A stretch of 64,000 nucleotides of DNA, from NCBI GenBank assembly GCA_943356495.1, contig CALRFF010000002.1:99826-163825 (forward strand), in the 5' to 3' direction. This document shows, one piece after another, positions 6,936 through 60,935 of this stretch. A program made the translations under genes and the position numbers. The notes beneath the pieces were generated by a model, which saw only the letters and a list, made by a program, of their open reading frames with translations, was not told where the DNA came from and did no database searches. Positions within the stretch are counted from its first letter, which is position 1, and the number at the start of each line of letters is the position of its first letter. This stretch comes from Candidatus Nomurabacteria bacterium (GTDB lineage Bacteria > Patescibacteriota > Minisyncoccia > Phycocordibacterales > SBAW01).

Positions 6936-7328
6936 ATGAAAGAATTTTGGTCAGAATTTAAAAGTTTTGCGGTTAAGGGCAACGCCCTCGAGCTTGCGAT
7001 TGCCGTTGTCGTGGGCAACGCGTTTTCCGGCGTGGTTAACTCGCTCGTTGCCGACATTATTACACCGGTTATCGGGCTTGCCACCAACAACGTAGACCTA
7101 AAGACTTTGATGTACGCGCCGCACGCGGGGGTCATTATTAAGTACGGCGCGTTTTTGCAGGCGATGGTGAACTTCCTCATTATTTCACTCTCTATATTTT
7201 TGGTATTTAAATTGCTCTCGATTGCCCGCAAACGGCTTTTTAGGCAGGGAGAAAAAGCGGTACCCCCCGAGCAAAAGCCGGCCCAAGAGCGTCTGCTCGA
7301 AGAAATTCGCGATCTGCTAAAGAAATAA
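6936..7328 (+). CDS. mscL: large-conductance mechanosensitive channel MscL
   Basis: MKEFWSEFKSFAVKGNALELAIAVVVGNAFSGVVNSLVADIITPVIGL matches the MscL N-terminus and TM1 consensus. Length is 130 aa. Confidence 0.9.
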   Translation: MKEFWSEFKSFAVKGNALELAIAVVVGNAFSGVVNSLVADIITPVIGLATNNVDLKTLMYAPHAGVIIKYGAFLQAMVNFLIISLSIFLVFKLLSIARKRLFRQGEKAVPPEQKPAQERLLEEIRDLLKK

Positions 7329-26543: not shown

Positions 26544-27971
26544 ATGGCCGACAAGAAGTTTTATCTTACGACGCCGATTTTTTATCCCAATGCCAAGCTG
26601 CATATGGGTCATGCGTACACCACGACACTCAGCGACATAGTGGTCCGCTATCATAGACTGTTGGGGGAGAAGACCTATTTTTTAACCGGTTCCGACGAAA
26701 ACACGCAAAAGGTTGTGCAAGCCGCCGCTGCGGCGGGGGAGGAGCCAAAAGTGTTTCTCGACAAGATTGTAGAGAATTTTAAAACACTGTTCAGCTCGCT
26801 CGACATTTCCTACGACCAGTTTATCCGCACCAGCGACGAGCAGGCTCATTGGCCGGGCGCTATTGCGCTCTGGAACAAATTGCAAGAGAGCGGTGACTTG
26901 TATAAAAAAGAGTACGAAGGTTTGTACTGCGTCGGGCACGAAGCGTTTATTACCGAAAAAGATTTGGTAGACGGAAAATGTCCCGACCACGGCACCGTGC
27001 CGCAGTATATTAAAGAAGAAAACTATTTCTTCCGTCTGTCGCGCTACACGGAAGATATACGCAAAAAAATAATCGCCGACGAGCTGGTGGTCGCCCCCGC
27101 GACGCGCAAGCGCGAAATCCTTTCTTTGCTCGACGAGGGGCTGCAGGATGTCAGTTTTTCGCGTCCGCGCACCGCAACATCGGTGGGCATACCCGTACCG
27201 AATGACGACTCGCAAGTGATGTACGTATGGTGCGATGCGCTGAGCAACTACATTACGGCTCTTGGCTATGGTCGGGACGACGCTTTGTATCAGGAGTTTT
27301 GGCCGGTCAACGTGCACGTGATAGGCAAAGATATTTTGCGCTTCCATGCGGCTATATGGCCGGCTATGCTTATGAGTGCCGGCATCGCGCTGCCAAAAAC
27401 TATATTGGTCCACGGGTTTATCACCTCGGGCGGTAAAAAAATGTCCAAGACGTTGGGTAACGTGATAGACCCTGAAGAGTTGTTGGCTGAGTACGGCACC
27501 GACGCGGTGCGCTACTACTTGGCGCGCTATATTTCGCCGTTTGAGGACGGCGATATTACCCGCGAGCATTGTAAGGCGGCCTACAACGCCGACTTGGCAA
27601 ACGGCTTGGGCAACCTTGCGGCACGCATTATGCAGTTGGCGCAGACACATTTGAGCGAACCGGTCGCGGTGGAGTGGAAGCCGTTTCCGAAAGAGTTTAC
27701 GGATGCGATGGAGAAATTCGAGGTTAATCGCGCGGTGGAATATGTGTGGCAGCGTATCCAAGCGCTTGATCAAAAAATAACTGCCGAAGCGCCGTTTAAA
27801 GTGGTTAAAGAAGACGCGCAGAAGGGCAAGGCGATAATTACGGAGTTAGTTACGGAGCTTGCCGCAATTGACCTTATGCTCGAGCCGCTCGTGCCGCAGA
27901 CAAGCAAAAAAATAATCGAAGCGATTATGGCTAACAAAAAGCCGGAGAATCTGTTTCCCCGCAAAGACTAA
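26544..27971 (+). CDS. metG: methionyl-tRNA synthetase
   Basis: [19 protein letters not shown] (HIGH region) and KMSKTLGN are present. Confidence 0.9.
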
Positions 27972-27972
27972 G

Positions 27973-28731
27973 ATGCGGCTCTTTGACGCGCATTGCCACC
28001 TGCAGCTGCCCCAGTACGACGCCGACCGCGCCGAAGTGTTGGCGCGCATGGCATTGGCGGGGGTGGGCGCGGTGGTTATCGGCACCGATTTTGAAACATC
28101 AAAGGCAGGGCTTGAGCTTGCGAAACAACATGACTTTTTATGGGCATCTGTCGGTCTGCATCCCAACGACAATGCCGACGAAGAATTTGATGTGGCACAG
28201 TACGAGGCACTGGCCCGCGACCCAAAAGTGGTAGCTATAGGGGAGTGCGGGTTGGATTACTTTAGGACCACCGGCCAAGGCCAGCGCAAAAGGTTCGAGG
28301 CACAGATAGCGCTTGCGCAAAAAGTAAACAAAGCGTTGGTGGTACATTGCCGCAATGCGCACGAGGACTGTATTAGTGTTTTGCAAAACACTGCAATAGC
28401 AAGCAAGGTGCCGGTGGTTATTCATTTTTTTACAGGTTCGGGCGAGCTGGCACAACAGTACCTCAATCTTGGGTGCTATCTCTCGTTCCCGGGGCCTATA
28501 ACTTACACCGACATGTACGACGACTCTATTCAGGTGTGCCCTATGGATAAGATGCTGGTAGAGACCGATGCTCCCTTTGCCGCACCGGTCCCGCACCGCG
28601 GCAAGCGCAACGAACCCGCATATGTTGCTGCAGTGGCCGCCAAAATCGCCGCGGTTAAAGGAATCCCCGCAGAGGAGGTGTGTCGCCAAACCGTCCTTAA
28701 TGCACAACGGATTTTTACTATTGACAAGTAG
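27973..28731 (+). CDS. tatD: TatD-family metal-dependent hydrolase/DNase
   Basis: MRLFDAHCHLQ N-terminus and conserved His/Asp/Glu spacing. Confidence 0.85.
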   Translation: MRLFDAHCHLQLPQYDADRAEVLARMALAGVGAVVIGTDFETSKAGLELAKQHDFLWASVGLHPNDNADEEFDVAQYEALARDPKVVAIGECGLDYFRTTGQGQRKRFEAQIALAQKVNKALVVHCRNAHEDCISVLQNTAIASKVPVVIHFFTGSGELAQQYLNLGCYLSFPGPITYTDMYDDSIQVCPMDKMLVETDAPFAAPVPHRGKRNEPAYVAAVAAKIAAVKGIPAEEVCRQTVLNAQRIFTIDK

Positions 28732-28812
28732 CACCAAAAGGAGTATAATAATAGGCGAACTGATGGGACCCGAAACTCGTCGGGCCACAGAACAGTTCGT
28801 TTAAAAAGGAGA

Positions 28813-29496
28813 TTGATGATGTCGATGCAACCCGCATTGAACACGTCGCCGGTCGTGACCGCCGATAGCCCCAAGGGGCTGCGTGCGCTCGAGACCTTCC
28901 GCGCCCAATACAACAAGGCCCAGCTCGACGACGAGGGTGCCCAACTGCTCAATGAGCACAAGGACTTCGCCGCTTACTTAGCCGAGGGCATTCGCAAGTT
29001 CTCGACCAAAGGGTCGGTGTTCCCGGTTTATCTCGAGATCGAGACGGGCAGCAAGTCGAGGGACGAGCTGCTGAAGGAACTGAAGGCGGCCGAGGTCGAG
29101 GTCTCCAAGTACGCCAAGGACATCATGTCCAAGGACGCTTGGAAGCCTGGCGAGAAGCAGGTCGTCAAATTCGCGCGGGTCAAGGTGAGCGAACTCGGGT
29201 TCACCAACCCGAACAAGCTTCCAACGACTCGCGAGATCTGGGCACGCATCCAGGAACTCGGGCACAGCCTCTGCGAGCCGGCTGACGGCCCGGCCATCCG
29301 GCTGAGTCTCAAGGACCAGCCGCGCGGCGACTACTTCTGGACTGCGATGGAACAGATTTCGGACTCCGGCGGCAGCCCGAGCGTGTTCTTCGTCAAGCGG
29401 TACGACGGCGGCAAGCGCTGGCTCCACGACTTTTGGGTCCGCCCCGACGACCGGTGGTTTCTCGTCGTCGAGTTCGTGTTCCGTCTCCGCAAGTAA
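28813..29496 (+). CDS. DGR target (variable) protein, C-terminal CLec-fold-like variable region
   Basis: Its last 132 nt (the VR) match the downstream TR with adenine-specific substitutions. The TR-encoded ancestral C-terminus ...NDNWVNPDNQWNLDNEIVFRLR follows the Asn-rich, GFRxxR-like ending typical of C-type-lectin-fold DGR targets. Confidence 0.85.
   Translation: MMMSMQPALNTSPVVTADSPKGLRALETFRAQYNKAQLDDEGAQLLNEHKDFAAYLAEGIRKFSTKGSVFPVYLEIETGSKSRDELLKELKAAEVEVSKYAKDIMSKDAWKPGEKQVVKFARVKVSELGFTNPNKLPTTREIWARIQELGHSLCEPADGPAIRLSLKDQPRGDYFWTAMEQISDSGGSPSVFFVKRYDGGKRWLHDFWVRPDDRWFLVVEFVFRLRK
29360..29491 (+). repeat. DGR variable repeat (VR)
   Basis: 132-nt ungapped alignment to the TR with 19 mismatches, all opposite TR adenines. 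The 3' 21 nt are identical (IMH-like). Confidence 0.9.
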
Positions 29497-29543
29497 CACT
29501 CAAGTTTTAGGGTTTAGCCCTAACTCTTGGTCCTTAGCCCTTC

Positions 29544-29579
29544 GGCCCGCATCGCAAGATGCGGGCCGCTTTCTTTTTT
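29544..29579 (+). terminator. GC hairpin with GCAA loop plus T-tract downstream of the VR (terminator / DGR-associated stem-loop)
   Basis: ggcccgcatc-GCAA-gatgcgggcc followed by gctttcttttttg. Confidence 0.6.
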
Positions 29580-29813
29580 GTATACTAAGGAGCGGTAGTA
29601 GGCGAGTATGCGTGCGGCAAGGACTGCGCGCTGCCCAATCCAGCAGACTTGCGCTGAGAATTTTTTCAACTGCGGTTGAGAAAAGAGTGGTTCAAGCGAG
29701 CTTAAAAAATAGAAGATACTTGGTGCGAGGCGCTACGGCATTGCGATGCCAAATACGATACAGGTTCTTGAATAATCGAGAGCCGGTGGCACGGGCGGCG
29801 CCCCGCACATAAA

Positions 29814-29945
29814 CGGACTCCGACGGCAACCCGAACGTGTTCTACGTCAAGCGGAACGACGACGGCAAGCGCTGGCTCAACGACAATTGGGTCAACCCCG
29901 ACAACCAGTGGAATCTCGACAACGAGATCGTGTTCCGTCTCCGCA
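29814..29945 (+). repeat. DGR template repeat (TR)
   Basis: Noncoding copy of the VR. It contains the AAC/AAT codons (in target frame) at every position that differs in the VR. Confidence 0.9.
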
Positions 29946-29952
29946 GCTCTCT

Positions 29953-30351
29953 TTATTTCTCCCCTGCCTTGGTAGGGGAGTTTTGTTTTGCGAGCTGACC
30001 GCTCCAACCATTGAGCATCTTTCCTATCTCGTCGAGTGGTTGAGCTAGCGCTAAGTAGCGTTTGTCGCGCAGAGATTTTGTCTCCCAAAGAATCAGGAGT
30101 AAAAAGTTGAGCGTGTTGAGCTTTTGCAGAGCCAACAGTACTACGGGACTCTTTTTATCCTTGGGGGCATAGACCGCCGAGGTTATACGTTCGATAAGGT
30201 CAATAAACAAGATGTCTACTCTTTCGCCTAGCGTGTAGCGATGGGCCTTTGGCAGCGTAAGATAGTACTCATGCCACAACAAATAAGCCTGTTTGACCCG
30301 CTCCAAAATAGGCAAAAGCCGTTGGGGGGGGGCTCGTAAAAGAGGACTCAC
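29953..30351 (-). CDS. avd: Avd-like DGR accessory variability determinant (four-helix-bundle family), encoded antisense to TR/RT
   Basis: ILERVKQAYLLWHEYYLTLPKAHRYTLGERVDILFIDLIERITSA aligns with Bordetella bAvd (IVERYERVISYLYPIAQSIPRKHGVAREMFLKCLLGQVELFIVAG). Length is about 130 aa with a basic C-terminus. The start codon is uncertain (the ORF track used GTG). Confidence 0.7.
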   Translation of the reverse strand: MSPLLRAPPQRLLPILERVKQAYLLWHEYYLTLPKAHRYTLGERVDILFIDLIERITSAVYAPKDKKSPVVLLALQKLNTLNFLLLILWETKSLRDKRYLALAQPLDEIGKMLNGWSGQLAKQNSPTKAGEK

Positions 30352-31315
30352 TCATACATATGACGATATCATTTCTGTCGAGAACCTGCTCGCGGCATGG
30401 AAGGAGTTTCGGCGTGGTAAGCGGTCCAAGCTAGACGTGCTGGAGTTTCAAACTGACTTGATGTATCAAATCACCGCTTTGCACGATGAATTAAAGAACA
30501 AAACGTACAAGCACGGCGGCTACCACCACTTTCGCATCAGTGACCCAAAACCCCGCGACATACACAAGGCGAGTGTACGCGACCGGCTGCTTCATCACGC
30601 CATATATAGAAAGCTGTACCCGTTCTTCGACAAAAAGTTCATTGCCGACTCTTACTCCTGCCGCCTGGGGAAGGGGACGCATAAGGCGATGAGTCAGTTC
30701 CGCCGATATGCCGGCAAAGTATCCCGCAACCATACCCGCACGTGCTGGGTCCTGAAGTGCGACATCCGCAAGTTCTTTGCCTCGATCGACCACCGGGTGT
30801 TGTTCTCCATCCTCGAGCGCTCCATACCCGACTCGGATATCCGCTGGCTCTTGCAGGAGGTGGTCGGCAGCTTCCGTGCGAGGCTAAACCTCGCACAAGG
30901 GTTGCCGCTCGGGAATCTCACAAGCCAACTCTTGGTCAACGTGTACATGAACGAGTTTGACCAATACACGAAGCACACGCTCAAAGCCAAGCACTTCATT
31001 CGCTATGCGGATGATTTTGTGCTGCTTTCGCACAACAAAACAGAGCTAGAAAAAAGACTACGATATATCGTAGTCTTTCTATGGGACAAATTAAAGCTGA
31101 AATTGCATCCCAACAAAGTATCCATCAGCACCTTTGCCTCCGGCGTCGACTTTTTAGGCTGGGTGCACTTTACCGACCACCGTGTGTTGCGTACTGCGAG
31201 CAAAAAGAGGATGCAGCGACGGCTACGAGAGCAAGCAGGGAATGAAAGTACCCGTCAATCATATATCGGGATGTTGAAGCATGGGAATACCGAGAAGTTG
31301 CGGCAAAAAATCTGA
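30293..31315 (+). CDS. DGR reverse transcriptase
   Basis: N-terminus ISVENLLAAWKEFRRGKRSK matches the bRT-like WENLWAAYRKAARGKR. SYSCRLGKGTHKA is the DGR-specific motif. LPLGNLTSQLLVNVYM has the I/LGxxxSQ signature in place of QGxxxSP. RYADDFVLL is the YADD motif. Length is about 330 aa. The true start is probably downstream of the TTG chosen by the ORF track. Confidence 0.9.
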   Translation: MTRSKIGKSRWGGARKRGLTHTYDDIISVENLLAAWKEFRRGKRSKLDVLEFQTDLMYQITALHDELKNKTYKHGGYHHFRISDPKPRDIHKASVRDRLLHHAIYRKLYPFFDKKFIADSYSCRLGKGTHKAMSQFRRYAGKVSRNHTRTCWVLKCDIRKFFASIDHRVLFSILERSIPDSDIRWLLQEVVGSFRARLNLAQGLPLGNLTSQLLVNVYMNEFDQYTKHTLKAKHFIRYADDFVLLSHNKTELEKRLRYIVVFLWDKLKLKLHPNKVSISTFASGVDFLGWVHFTDHRVLRTASKKRMQRRLREQAGNESTRQSYIGMLKHGNTEKLRQKI

Positions 31316-31332
31316 TATGGTAAGGTACTTTC

Positions 31333-31842
31333 ATGGCAGAAACGTCGCAGGTCTCTCCGGAGATCTCATCCCAAGCGAACGCCGATGGCCGACCCGTATA
31401 CGAGGTCGGTTTTCACCTGCTCCCTAGCATACCCGAAGAGGGTCTTGGTGCGGTTGTAGAGAAGATCCGCACGCTGCTCGGCAAGGCGGAGATTATTGCA
31501 GAAGGCTTTCCCGCAAAGATGACGCTCGCGTACACTATCGAGCGCGCGCACACCGGCAAGCGCGACAAGTTTACCCAGAGCTACTTCGGCTGGATTAAGT
31601 TTGTGGTCGAGGACCGCTCTAACACGCAGGCGCTCCAAGAGTCGCTCCGCACTATGCCGGAGGTATTGCGCTTTTTGGTTATCGAAACTACCCGCGAGGA
31701 TGCCAAAGAGGCGCCGCGCCGTGCAGTCTTTAGCTCCGACCGTCTCGAGGGCGAAACCATCAAAAAGCCGGTTGCAGCCGAAAAGGGCGGGGAGGTCAGC
31801 CAAGCCGAGCTCGATAAGTCGATCGAGGCCCTGACCGGCTAG
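31333..31842 (+). CDS. rpsF: 30S ribosomal protein S6 (with N- and C-terminal extensions)
   Basis: The core YEVGFHLLPSIPEEGLGAVVEKIRTLLGKAEIIAEGFPAKMTLAYTIE matches S6. It is followed by ssb and rpsR in the conserved operon order. Confidence 0.8.
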   Translation: MAETSQVSPEISSQANADGRPVYEVGFHLLPSIPEEGLGAVVEKIRTLLGKAEIIAEGFPAKMTLAYTIERAHTGKRDKFTQSYFGWIKFVVEDRSNTQALQESLRTMPEVLRFLVIETTREDAKEAPRRAVFSSDRLEGETIKKPVAAEKGGEVSQAELDKSIEALTG

Positions 31843-31857
31843 GCGTATACTTATTGT

Positions 31858-32313
31858 ATGTATCTCAACAAGGTAATGCTCTTCGGTAACCTGACCCGTG
31901 ACCCGGAGGTCCGCGCCTTGCCGAGCGGCGGCAATGTATGTTCCTTCAGTATCGCGACTAACCGCAATTACAAAAAGCCGAGCGGCGAGAAGGTCGAGGA
32001 GGTCGAGTTCCACAACATAGTGACCTTCGGCAAGCTTGCTGATCTTTGCGCGCAGTATCTTAAAAAGGGCGGCAGCGCGTATGTCGAAGGGCGCCTCAAG
32101 ACCCGCTCATGGGAGGGCAAAGACGACGGGAAAAAGCAGTACAAGACCGAGATTATCGCCGACACGGTGCAGTTTGGCCCGCGGGGCACCACTACGGGGG
32201 CGGGCGGGGCACCGGCTCGGGTAACCGACGCCGAGGCGCCGCAGAAGGCTCCTAAAGACGACGCAATAGACTACCCCGCAGAAGACATTAATCCTGAGGA
32301 CATCCCGTTCTAA
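31858..32313 (+). CDS. ssb: single-stranded DNA-binding protein
   Basis: The OB-fold reads LNKVMLFGNLTRDPEVRALPSGGNVCSFSIATNR. The acidic C-terminal tail ends ...EDINPEDIPF. Confidence 0.9.
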   Translation: MYLNKVMLFGNLTRDPEVRALPSGGNVCSFSIATNRNYKKPSGEKVEEVEFHNIVTFGKLADLCAQYLKKGGSAYVEGRLKTRSWEGKDDGKKQYKTEIIADTVQFGPRGTTTGAGGAPARVTDAEAPQKAPKDDAIDYPAEDINPEDIPF

Positions 32314-32322
32314 AAAACTTAT

Positions 32323-32517
32323 ATGGCAAAAGAATACGTACCCCAATTTAATACGATCGACTACAAGGACATTGAGACCATCAAGAAGTTCCTTAACCCG
32401 CACGGCAAGATAATGGCGCGCCGCCGCACCAACCTGTCTTCGCACGGTCAGCGCGCGCTCAGCGAAGCCGTTAAACGCGCCCGCTTTATGGCGCTCCTGC
32501 CGTATATCGTCCGCTAA
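32323..32517 (+). CDS. rpsR: 30S ribosomal protein S18
   Basis: [50 protein letters not shown] is canonical S18. Confidence 0.9.
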
Positions 32518-57393: not shown

Positions 57394-57667
57394 GACCTCT
57401 ACAAGATATGTTGATCACAAAAGACCTTATGAAGCGCCATCGGTAAGCCCTTCGGGTTTTGCCTGCGGCCGCTTCGAAAGAAGCGGTTTTTTGTTTCAAG
57501 GATATCTTCGGCCTTTGACAACTGAATTCTGTCACGCAGCACCACGTTTGAGACGTGGGTCTTTTGTGGGTGTGGAGACAGGCAGGTAAAAAAATCAAAA
57601 AGAAGAAAAGTAGAACAACAAATTATTGCGGTCCTTAAGTCCTCTTCTCTCAAACAAAGGGAAGAGA

Positions 57668-60935
<3,268 letters not shown>

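Follow-up and report, generated by a model that had tools for sequence, protein, structure and literature searches.

A B3-type diversity-generating retroelement in a Candidatus Nomurabacteria contig and the structured RNA domain 5' of its template repeat

A stretch of 64,000 nucleotides from a contig of a Candidatus Nomurabacteria bacterium (CALRFF010000002.1, positions 99,826 to 163,825), hereafter the window, harbors a diversity-generating retroelement (DGR) in which the accessory gene avd is inverted and lies between the template repeat (TR) and the gene for the reverse transcriptase (RT). In Bordetella phage BPP-1, by contrast, avd, TR and brt are arranged in that order on one strand and an essential structured spacer RNA is located 3' of the TR (Handa et al., PMC6182149). 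The locus raises the question of where an element of the inverted type keeps the RNA structure of its TR transcript, and the analysis presented here (all positions being those of the window) identifies a covariation-supported structured RNA domain of approximately 225 nt directly 5' of the TR.

The repeat pair, its cassette and recent diversification

The element is defined by two repeats:

29360-29491, plus strand: variable repeat (VR), comprising the final 44 codons of the target gene, a gapless 132-nt match to the TR
29814-29945, plus strand: TR, noncoding, identical in strain L057

The two repeats align over 132 nt without gaps at an offset of 454 and differ at 19 positions, at all of which the TR base is A, while the VR carries G (8), T (9) or C (2). 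Thus, 19 of the 34 TR adenines are changed in the VR, and the probability that 19 random mismatches would all land on these 34 adenines is 4.5e-14 (hypergeometric). An earlier, sequence-only reading of the same DNA had reported this gapless match, its offset and the confinement of every difference to an A of the TR, and the same coordinates and mismatches were recovered here. The VR changes are confined to codon position 1 or 2 of the open reading frame (ORF) at 28813-29496, and the TR adenines are distributed over target codon positions in the same manner (13 at position 1, 21 at position 2 and none at position 3). Translated in the target frame, the TR reads TDSDGNPNVFYVKRNDDGKRWLNDNWVNPDNQWNLDNEIVFRLRS and contains seven AAC and two AAT codons, as had been noted for the variable sites. 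The identical 3' tail past the last mismatch, previously given as 21 nt, measures 18 nt (29474-29491), its single adenine being the terminal base, and to call it similar to an initiation of mutagenic homing (IMH) site was an overstatement, as no IMH/IMH* pair with diagnostic differences is recognizable between the VR and TR 3' ends. Two nucleotides separate the end of the VR from the target stop codon, and the homology may extend a further 3 nt on its 5' side (TTT at 29357-29359 versus AAA at 29811-29813). Neither BLAST nor an adenine-masked scan revealed a second VR or a remote target in the 64-kb window.

The proteins presumed to carry out the transfer from TR to VR are encoded downstream of the TR:

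30293-31315, plus strand: DGR reverse transcriptase, 340 aa from a TTG start (RVT_1, E 1e-25)
29953-30351, minus strand: accessory gene avd, in inverse orientation to TR and RT, with a likely start at TTG 30315 rather than GTG 30351

Judged by its closest solved relative and its aligned motifs, the RT is of the DGR type: among solved structures, it is matched best by bRT of the Bordetella phage (8ub7; E 2.7e-43 for residues 22-313), with group II intron RTs reaching 5e-21, and the motifs SYSCRLGKGTH, LGNLTSQ and YADD, already recognized in the sequence-only reading, are present, the latter two aligning with bRT. The full-length RT itself is absent from our protein collection, in which its best match is a truncated call, P0103. 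The product of avd is matched by PF22296 (bAvd; E 9e-9, 36.2 bits against a cut-off of 40) and by the NCBIfam model DivGenRetAVD (NF033474; E 1e-14 over residues 13-116, 54.6 bits against a cut-off of 80), while a PDB sequence search returned no match; homologs in L057, L059, L060 and L062 carry precomputed PF22296 assignments. The previous description of an Avd-like ORF between TR and RT holds for its position and probably for its family, to which its location on the minus strand must be added. The avd stop codon lies 8 nt past the TR, and at the opposite end the 5' ends of the divergent avd (minus) and RT (plus) genes overlap, the extent being 23-59 nt according to which avd start is used (30293-30351), an arrangement which is conserved in related loci and which would place the promoter of each gene inside the coding sequence of the other.

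The order target(+), TR(+), avd(-), RT(+) recurs in every cassette-bearing locus examined. It corresponds to TR-(avd)-RT with a reversed avd, the B3 architecture of Wu et al. (2018; PMC5758913), which these authors found in approximately 90% of their set of DGRs from the candidate phyla radiation (CPR) and hardly elsewhere. By gene content and order, the element is a complete member of this already catalogued class, possessing target gene and VR, TR, Avd and DGR-type RT, all of which had been named in the sequence-only reading. It resembles the CPR B3 DGRs of that study in its core order with reversed avd, in the upstream target gene bearing the VR at its 3' end, and in its CPR host, its chromosomal site by ribosomal-protein genes and its target without a recognizable Pfam domain, and no difference in gene content from them was noted. 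The B1 layout, in which avd lies upstream of the TR on the same strand and a noncoding spacer separates TR from RT, was not encountered, the TR-RT interval being antisense avd. The comparison with BPP-1 architecture made previously does not hold in this respect, given the inverted avd between TR and RT, the antisense avd 3' of the TR and the structured RNA 5' of it. The cassette is inserted between tatD and rpsF-ssb-rpsR, downstream of metG (26544-32517), and has the same neighbors in L061, so that the element is chromosomal. Overall, we consider it very probable that a Parcubacteria-type (CPR) bacterium here carries a chromosomal DGR in the B3 order, target(VR) > TR > (avd, inverted) > RT. 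In other relatives, the cassette adjoins ruvC/ruvB or ileS/recO, and such differing neighborhoods indicate that it moves between housekeeping contexts.

Recent diversification is most clearly illustrated by L057, a 2874-nt contig from another metagenome which is 98.7% identical to the window over 2806 nt. The TRs of the two strains are identical, while their VRs differ at 20 positions, all of which (20/20) correspond to TR adenines. Outside the VR, approximately five differences are found in 2.7 kb, the variable-length G tract described below not being counted, and these include two substitutions in the rest of the target gene and one in the leader. A re-randomized VR beside an identical TR and so few other differences implies at least one homing event after a very recent common ancestor. 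The element has thus diversified recently, the pattern being that expected from homing after separation of the strains, which bears out the earlier proposal that it is active or was so until recently. The same layout is present in 10 of 19 reference-genome loci and in many metagenome loci, with a repeat stretch of 86-137 nt and 10-28 mismatches per related locus, all on TR adenines; adenine-only differences were recorded for more than 14 related loci besides the window. Organisms with related cassette loci include Adlerbacteria, Paceibacterota, Zambryskibacteria and Moranbacteria. In the Zambryskibacteria locus L006 (TR at approximately 7070-7075), a TGA replaces a conserved TGG (Trp) codon in TR and VR alike, as though a mutation of the TR had been transferred to, and had truncated, the target. 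As a DGR, the element is one more well-documented active example in a class which is known and very large, its target family being one without a name.

Two alternative readings of the repeat pair and its cassette have to be weighed at this point. That the repeats represent an ordinary duplication or gene-conversion tract, the RT being of retron, group II intron or defence type, can be given practically no credence: although the best NCBIfam match of the RT is a group II intron RT/maturase model (141.9 bits, cut-off 300) and weak Drt and retron matches are also obtained, the DGR bRT is its best solved relative by 22 orders of magnitude in E-value, an avd gene adjoins it, and no group II intron or retron RNA family was found in Rfam, while the adenine specificity of the mismatches, which holds in every related locus, already refutes a duplication or another kind of RT. 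It is also quite improbable that the cassette is a decaying relic whose VR/TR differences are old and which no longer works. The G10 tract of L057, which in place of G9 breaks the RT frame right past the tract, the TGA in both TR and VR of L006, and the many target homologs without a cassette within 3-6 kb could be cited in its favor; however, RT, avd, target and TR of the window are all intact and in frame, and the 20 VR differences between the window and L057 at identical TRs point to recent homing. We regard the element as an active or recently active DGR.

A structured RNA domain directly 5' of the template repeat

The interval from the target gene terminator to the TR is conserved across loci and consists of a -10-like box followed by approximately 225 nt, which comprise invariant sequence blocks and helices rich in compensatory change, eight helices in all. 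Its main features in the window are as follows:

29581-29586, plus strand: -10-like box TATACT, presumed promoter of the TR RNA, with positions 2 (A) and 6 (T) invariant in 22 loci
29587-29813, plus strand: conserved structured leader RNA (alignments A2 and A3, RNAalifold, covariation, covariance model R1)
29611-29617/29624-29630, plus strand: leader helix P1
29650-29655/29689-29694 and 29661-29671/29674-29684, plus strand: leader helix P2
29723-29734/29797-29808, plus strand: leader helix P3, enclosing P3a and P3b
29737-29742/29745-29750 and 29763-29766/29781-29784, plus strand: leader helices P3a and P3b, respectively

The secondary structure is carried by covariation. In the alignment of 22 sequences with 60 pairs, 93.1% of cells are paired, compared to 43-51% when the partners are slid by one to three columns, and the covariation score is 0.61 against 0.13-0.18, a value reached by none of 500 shuffles. 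A 25-sequence alignment agrees with this result, 58-60 pairs, 93-94% pairing and scores of 0.60-0.61 being obtained across the two alignments. The larger alignment includes four additional cassettes, with RTs of 65-72% identity and unrelated target proteins, and these four possess the same leader.

A covariance model, R1, built for the TR-proximal domain of the leader, matches exactly once per cassette, yielding 35 matches in 429 kb, including 10 loci outside model building, and no match elsewhere in the 429 kb, the cassette-less target-homolog loci included. Its single match in the 64-kb window lies at 29701-29812. The leader is, thus, present in every cassette of the clade examined, regardless of the target protein, and its covariance model may be used to annotate CPR DGRs. 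A search of Rfam returned no family for the leader or the TR flanks, whether the gathering threshold or a limit of E 10 was applied, the only sub-threshold matches being on the terminator hairpin, and the Bordetella-type structured spacer between TR and RT (Rfam RT-10 / Sp) was not matched, the conserved structure lying 5' of the TR instead. A 66-aa ORF (29612-29812) which overlies the leader was rejected as coding, since variation within helices is compensatory and indels between loci do not preserve a reading frame of three. Also set aside were a 3-bp pairing of the leader with the TR end predicted by RNAalifold (A2 columns 76-78/517-519) and the helices inside the TR, these being either of insufficient length or, under coding constraint, devoid of covariation.

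Handa et al. (PMC6182149; bioRxiv 10.1101/2023.10.23.563531) limited their screen of CPR DGRs to 40 nt before and 100 nt after the TR, and the leader domain would have escaped their view because only 40 nt upstream of the TR were analyzed. No prior description of this RNA was found in the searchable literature, an earlier description being possible. In B3 elements, which make up approximately 90% of CPR DGRs, the site of the Bordetella-type spacer is taken by an inverted gene, and a 5' domain offers a testable model of how cDNA synthesis is primed and stopped.

A long-range helix and its likeness to the Bordetella phage RNA

Beyond the local helices, a strand of the leader pairs across the TR with a strand immediately 3' of it, forming what is termed helix 4:

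29708-29716, plus strand: leader strand of long-range helix 4, AAUAGAAGA, primer-like, A29716 being the candidate priming nucleotide
29950-29958, plus strand: UCUUUAUUU, the strand which completes helix 4, immediately 3' of the TR and containing the avd stop codon (29953-29955, minus strand)
29959-29989, plus strand: 9-bp hairpin with a 4-nt loop, followed by UUUUGUUUU, a candidate TR RNA terminator and/or Avd-binding stem-loop

The partner strand begins 4 nt past the end of the TR/VR homology. Across loci, helix 4 changes from GAAGA/UCUUC to AAACA/UGUUU or GAAAA/UUUUC, three positions exhibiting two or three Watson-Crick pair types (GC/CG/AU, GC/AU and UA/AU), and in L059 and L062 the strands are different yet complementary (GUGAAGA/UCCUCAC and CAAUGG/CCAUCG). 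The hairpin at 29959-29989, which was detected by a terminator scan, is a covarying stem in all loci and lies within the C-terminal codons of avd on the other strand. Its shape corresponds to that of the 9-bp, tetraloop-capped Avd-binding stem-loops which Handa et al. (PMC6182149; bioRxiv 10.1101/2023.10.23.563531) described directly after the TR.

In the Bordetella phage RNA, as described by Handa et al., the order of elements is a pre-TR strand, the TR (nt 117-129 of which form the template strand), an Avd-binding stem-loop, a primer strand ending at A56, a 2-nt linker, a stop strand which pairs with the pre-TR strand, a short stem-loop, two adenosines, a single-stranded ring and an RT-binding stem-loop. 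In the window, the order is P1 and P2, the primer-like strand, the 6-nt linker UACUUG, the 5' strand of P3, the stem-loop P3a, an A-rich single strand, the stem-loop P3b, the single strand GGUGG, the 3' strand of P3 (separated from the TR by 5 nt), the TR, a 4-nt gap, the helix 4 partner, the hairpin and the U run. Both strand pairings and the order of the later elements are, therefore, as in the Bordetella RNA with the chain opened elsewhere, and we propose that the TR RNA of this element is a circularly permuted form of it.

According to this proposal, the TR would be transcribed from its own promoter (at approximately 29581) into an RNA of approximately 400 nt ending at the hairpin and U run of 29959-29989. 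An RT-Avd complex is presumed to bind this RNA and to synthesize an adenine-mutagenized cDNA which then replaces the VR. By analogy with the Bordetella phage ribonucleoprotein, helix 4 would represent the template:primer duplex, with A29716 serving as primer and C29949 as the first templated base, while P3, which closes directly before the TR, would act as the stop element ending cDNA synthesis at the 5' end of the TR. The RNA as a whole would thus be a circular permutation of the Bordetella DGR RNA.

The likeness to BPP-1 (PMC6182149; bioRxiv 10.1101/2023.10.23.563531; PDB 8ub7-8ube) extends to adenine-specific TR-to-VR transfer, full-length RT homology (E 2.7e-43) with an IGxxxSQ-type motif, an Avd accessory protein, a C-type lectin (CLec)-type target and a stem-loop directly past the TR, as well as to the succession from primer-like strand to a strand pairing just upstream of the TR and on to a stem-loop, adenosines, a single strand and a further stem-loop. 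The element differs from BPP-1 in its inverted avd 3' of the TR, in its structured domain 5' rather than 3' of the TR (circularly permuted connectivity), in the template-side strand of the long-range helix, which here lies 4 nt beyond the TR/VR homology and not inside the TR, and in being chromosomal rather than phage-borne, with no Rfam RT-10-like match.

Several observations weigh against the permuted-RNA proposal and the assignments on which it is built. Helix 4 is A/U-rich and mismatched in some loci (87-90% of cells paired), three to five of its nine pairs never covary, and it could be a closing or stop-type helix instead of a primer duplex. The linker past the primer-like strand comprises 6 nt here versus 2 nt in the Bordetella phage, and the proposed start at 29949 falls 4 nt outside the VR/TR homology, whereas synthesis in the Bordetella phage begins inside the TR. 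Should transcription end at the hairpin and U run, the RT would require its own promoter inside antisense avd, and no separate promoter was found there. In addition, the Avd scores are below the curated cut-offs of both models, and the termini, priming site and stop role assigned to the TR RNA are all inferred. A contrasting explanation reduces the conserved region 5' of the TR to a promoter with a 5' untranslated region (UTR) or to an element of stability or termination, priming being directed, as in the Bordetella phage, from sequences 3' of the TR in the antisense-avd stretch. We regard this as unlikely, if more plausible than the alternatives weighed above. All essential priming elements of the Bordetella phage are 3' of the TR, Handa et al. 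reported putative Avd-binding stem-loops with upstream and downstream duplexes in 207 of 278 Avd-containing DGRs, CPR included, and a hairpin of the reported shape stands directly past the TR here. The 3' side of the TR is, however, coding sequence of avd on the other strand, from which the TR is separated by the conserved hairpin and U run, and the eight leader helices, with their extensive compensatory change and invariant single-stranded blocks, go far beyond the needs of a promoter or UTR. The leader is, moreover, conserved across cassettes with unrelated targets, and the survey of Handa et al. was confined to 40 nt upstream of the TR, which left the leader outside its scope.

The slippery repeat, the target protein and neighboring sequence

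The 5' end of the RT gene contains an uninterrupted repeat which is a further conserved property of these cassettes:

30324-30332, plus strand: G9 homopolymer in RT codons 11-14 (WGGA); relative to the likely start of avd on the opposite strand, it lies 9-17 nt upstream

A repeat occupies the equivalent position in every related locus that includes the RT 5' end (L001, L004-L006, L010, L014, L018, L021, L023, L025-L029, L033, L034, L040, L043, L046, L048, L051, L057 and L059-L062). Loci of the main clade carry a poly-G of 8, 9, 10 or 11 there, and those of a divergent subclade carry (GA)7-11. Near-identical pairs of loci differ by one G (G9 in the window and G10 in L057; G8 in L027 and G9 in L028; G10 in L025 and G9 in L026), and the RT frame of L057, read from the TTG start, meets a stop directly past its tract. 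Across loci, an in-frame start upstream of the tract is kept in approximately half and not in the rest, and in database RT homologs the tract is either read as GG(G) past an N-terminus of approximately 10 residues or the protein is called truncated. The persistence of an uninterrupted homopolymer across proteins which are 65% identical, together with its exchange for a dinucleotide repeat in a subclade, argues for selection on the nucleotide tract rather than on glycines. This pattern may reflect phase variation of the RT, perhaps also of avd, by ON/OFF switching, transcriptional slippage being a candidate alternative explanation. The differences in tract length are open chiefly to the objection that homopolymers are prone to assembly error, an objection which does not apply to the conservation of the tract.

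Such a tract resembles the simple sequence repeat (SSR) contingency loci of, for example, Neisseria, Haemophilus and Bordetella, whose homopolymeric tracts give phase variation through slipped-strand mispairing, in that it is uninterrupted, is located near a coding 5' end between divergent genes, and varies in length between near-identical strains, with some lengths keeping the RT frame and others breaking it; it differs in that its lengths are taken from error-prone metagenome assemblies and in that transcriptional slippage may operate instead. No SSR-controlled DGR, nor any link between DGRs and such tracts, was found in the searchable literature, and a conserved slippery repeat in the RT would, if true, represent a control layer not yet described for DGRs, the mutator itself being switched on and off. 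The combined proposal, that B3 DGRs use a circularly permuted RNA, with the primer strand, stop duplex and RT-binding elements shifted from behind the TR to its front and with priming from a leader adenosine (A29716) paired beside the TR 3' end, and that the poly-G/(GA)n tract in the RT gates diversification stochastically, is advanced tentatively, as something possible rather than probable. If true, lineages would switch hypermutation of a surface-type protein on and off stochastically.

The protein subject to diversification is encoded upstream of the leader, and its gene is bounded by predicted expression signals:

28721-28749, plus strand: promoter-like site upstream of the target, TTGACA-17-TATAAT, 12/12 consensus matches (predicted)
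28813-29496, plus strand: target gene, 227 aa, with a three-helix N-terminal module (approximately residues 20-64) and a C-type-lectin-like domain (approximately residues 70-227)
29543-29578, plus strand: hairpin and T run, probable target-gene terminator (terminator scan; 10-11 bp stem, GCAA loop)

The GC-rich hairpin with GCAA loop and T tract described in the sequence-only reading is indeed present (GGCCCGCATC-GCAA-GATGCGGGCC at 29543-29568, then the T run), 52 nt past the VR, but its significance was overstated: on the simpler reading it looks like the intrinsic terminator of the target gene. Related loci possess an equivalent hairpin of different sequence after the target. In the stretch from the target stop codon to this hairpin (29497-29545), short semi-conserved motifs are repeated (CTTAG, CCCTTAGCCC and CTTGAAT), with an equivalent stretch in related loci; this is where a DGR target-recognition element might be expected.

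No Pfam or NCBIfam family matched the target protein at E up to 0.1, including FGE-sulfatase, DUF1566 and other named CLec families, and it was matched to no named VR class, the UVR alignments of Wu et al. lying outside the comparison. Its AlphaFold model (65 homologs, pLDDT 90) comprises the three-helix N-terminal module and an alpha/beta C-terminal domain. The C-type-lectin fold proposed for the target is supported at the level of the fold, with modest scores, and the diversified residues lie in this CLec-like C-terminal domain. Compared to Treponema denticola TvpA and other CLec variable proteins of DGRs, the target lacks an FGE-sulfatase or DUF1566 Pfam signature, its domain is small (approximately 155 aa), and it is fused to a 65-aa helical N-terminal module which is also found in another class of hypervariable proteins. 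The target itself is absent from the protein collection, its best match there being P0001 (93%).

In P0048, P0056 and P0058, the CLec-like variable domain is located behind at least three unrelated N-terminal modules, so that the target family is modular. Conversely, proteins P0070-P0102, of approximately 265 aa, have only the 65-residue N-terminal helical module in common with the target (approximately 74% identity) and possess a hypervariable C-terminus of their own (SSLDSDG...GLSAARK). For one such protein, in L058 (3633-3713, 4001-4804), the VR matches a partial inverted TR-like copy upstream, and avd, RT and leader are all absent within 4 kb of its gene. For many target homologs likewise, avd, RT and leader RNA are all missing within 3-6 kb (L007, L008, L011-L013, L015-L017, L030-L032, L036-L039, L041, L042, L044, L049 and L050); these cassette-less homologs may be diversified in trans or may represent non-diversified paralogs.

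Elsewhere in the window, no 16S gene precedes the 23S rRNA gene, whose match (57662-60928) spans 3267 nt against a model of 2925 positions, corresponding to an insertion of approximately 340 nt; 23S insertions are common in CPR rRNA genes.

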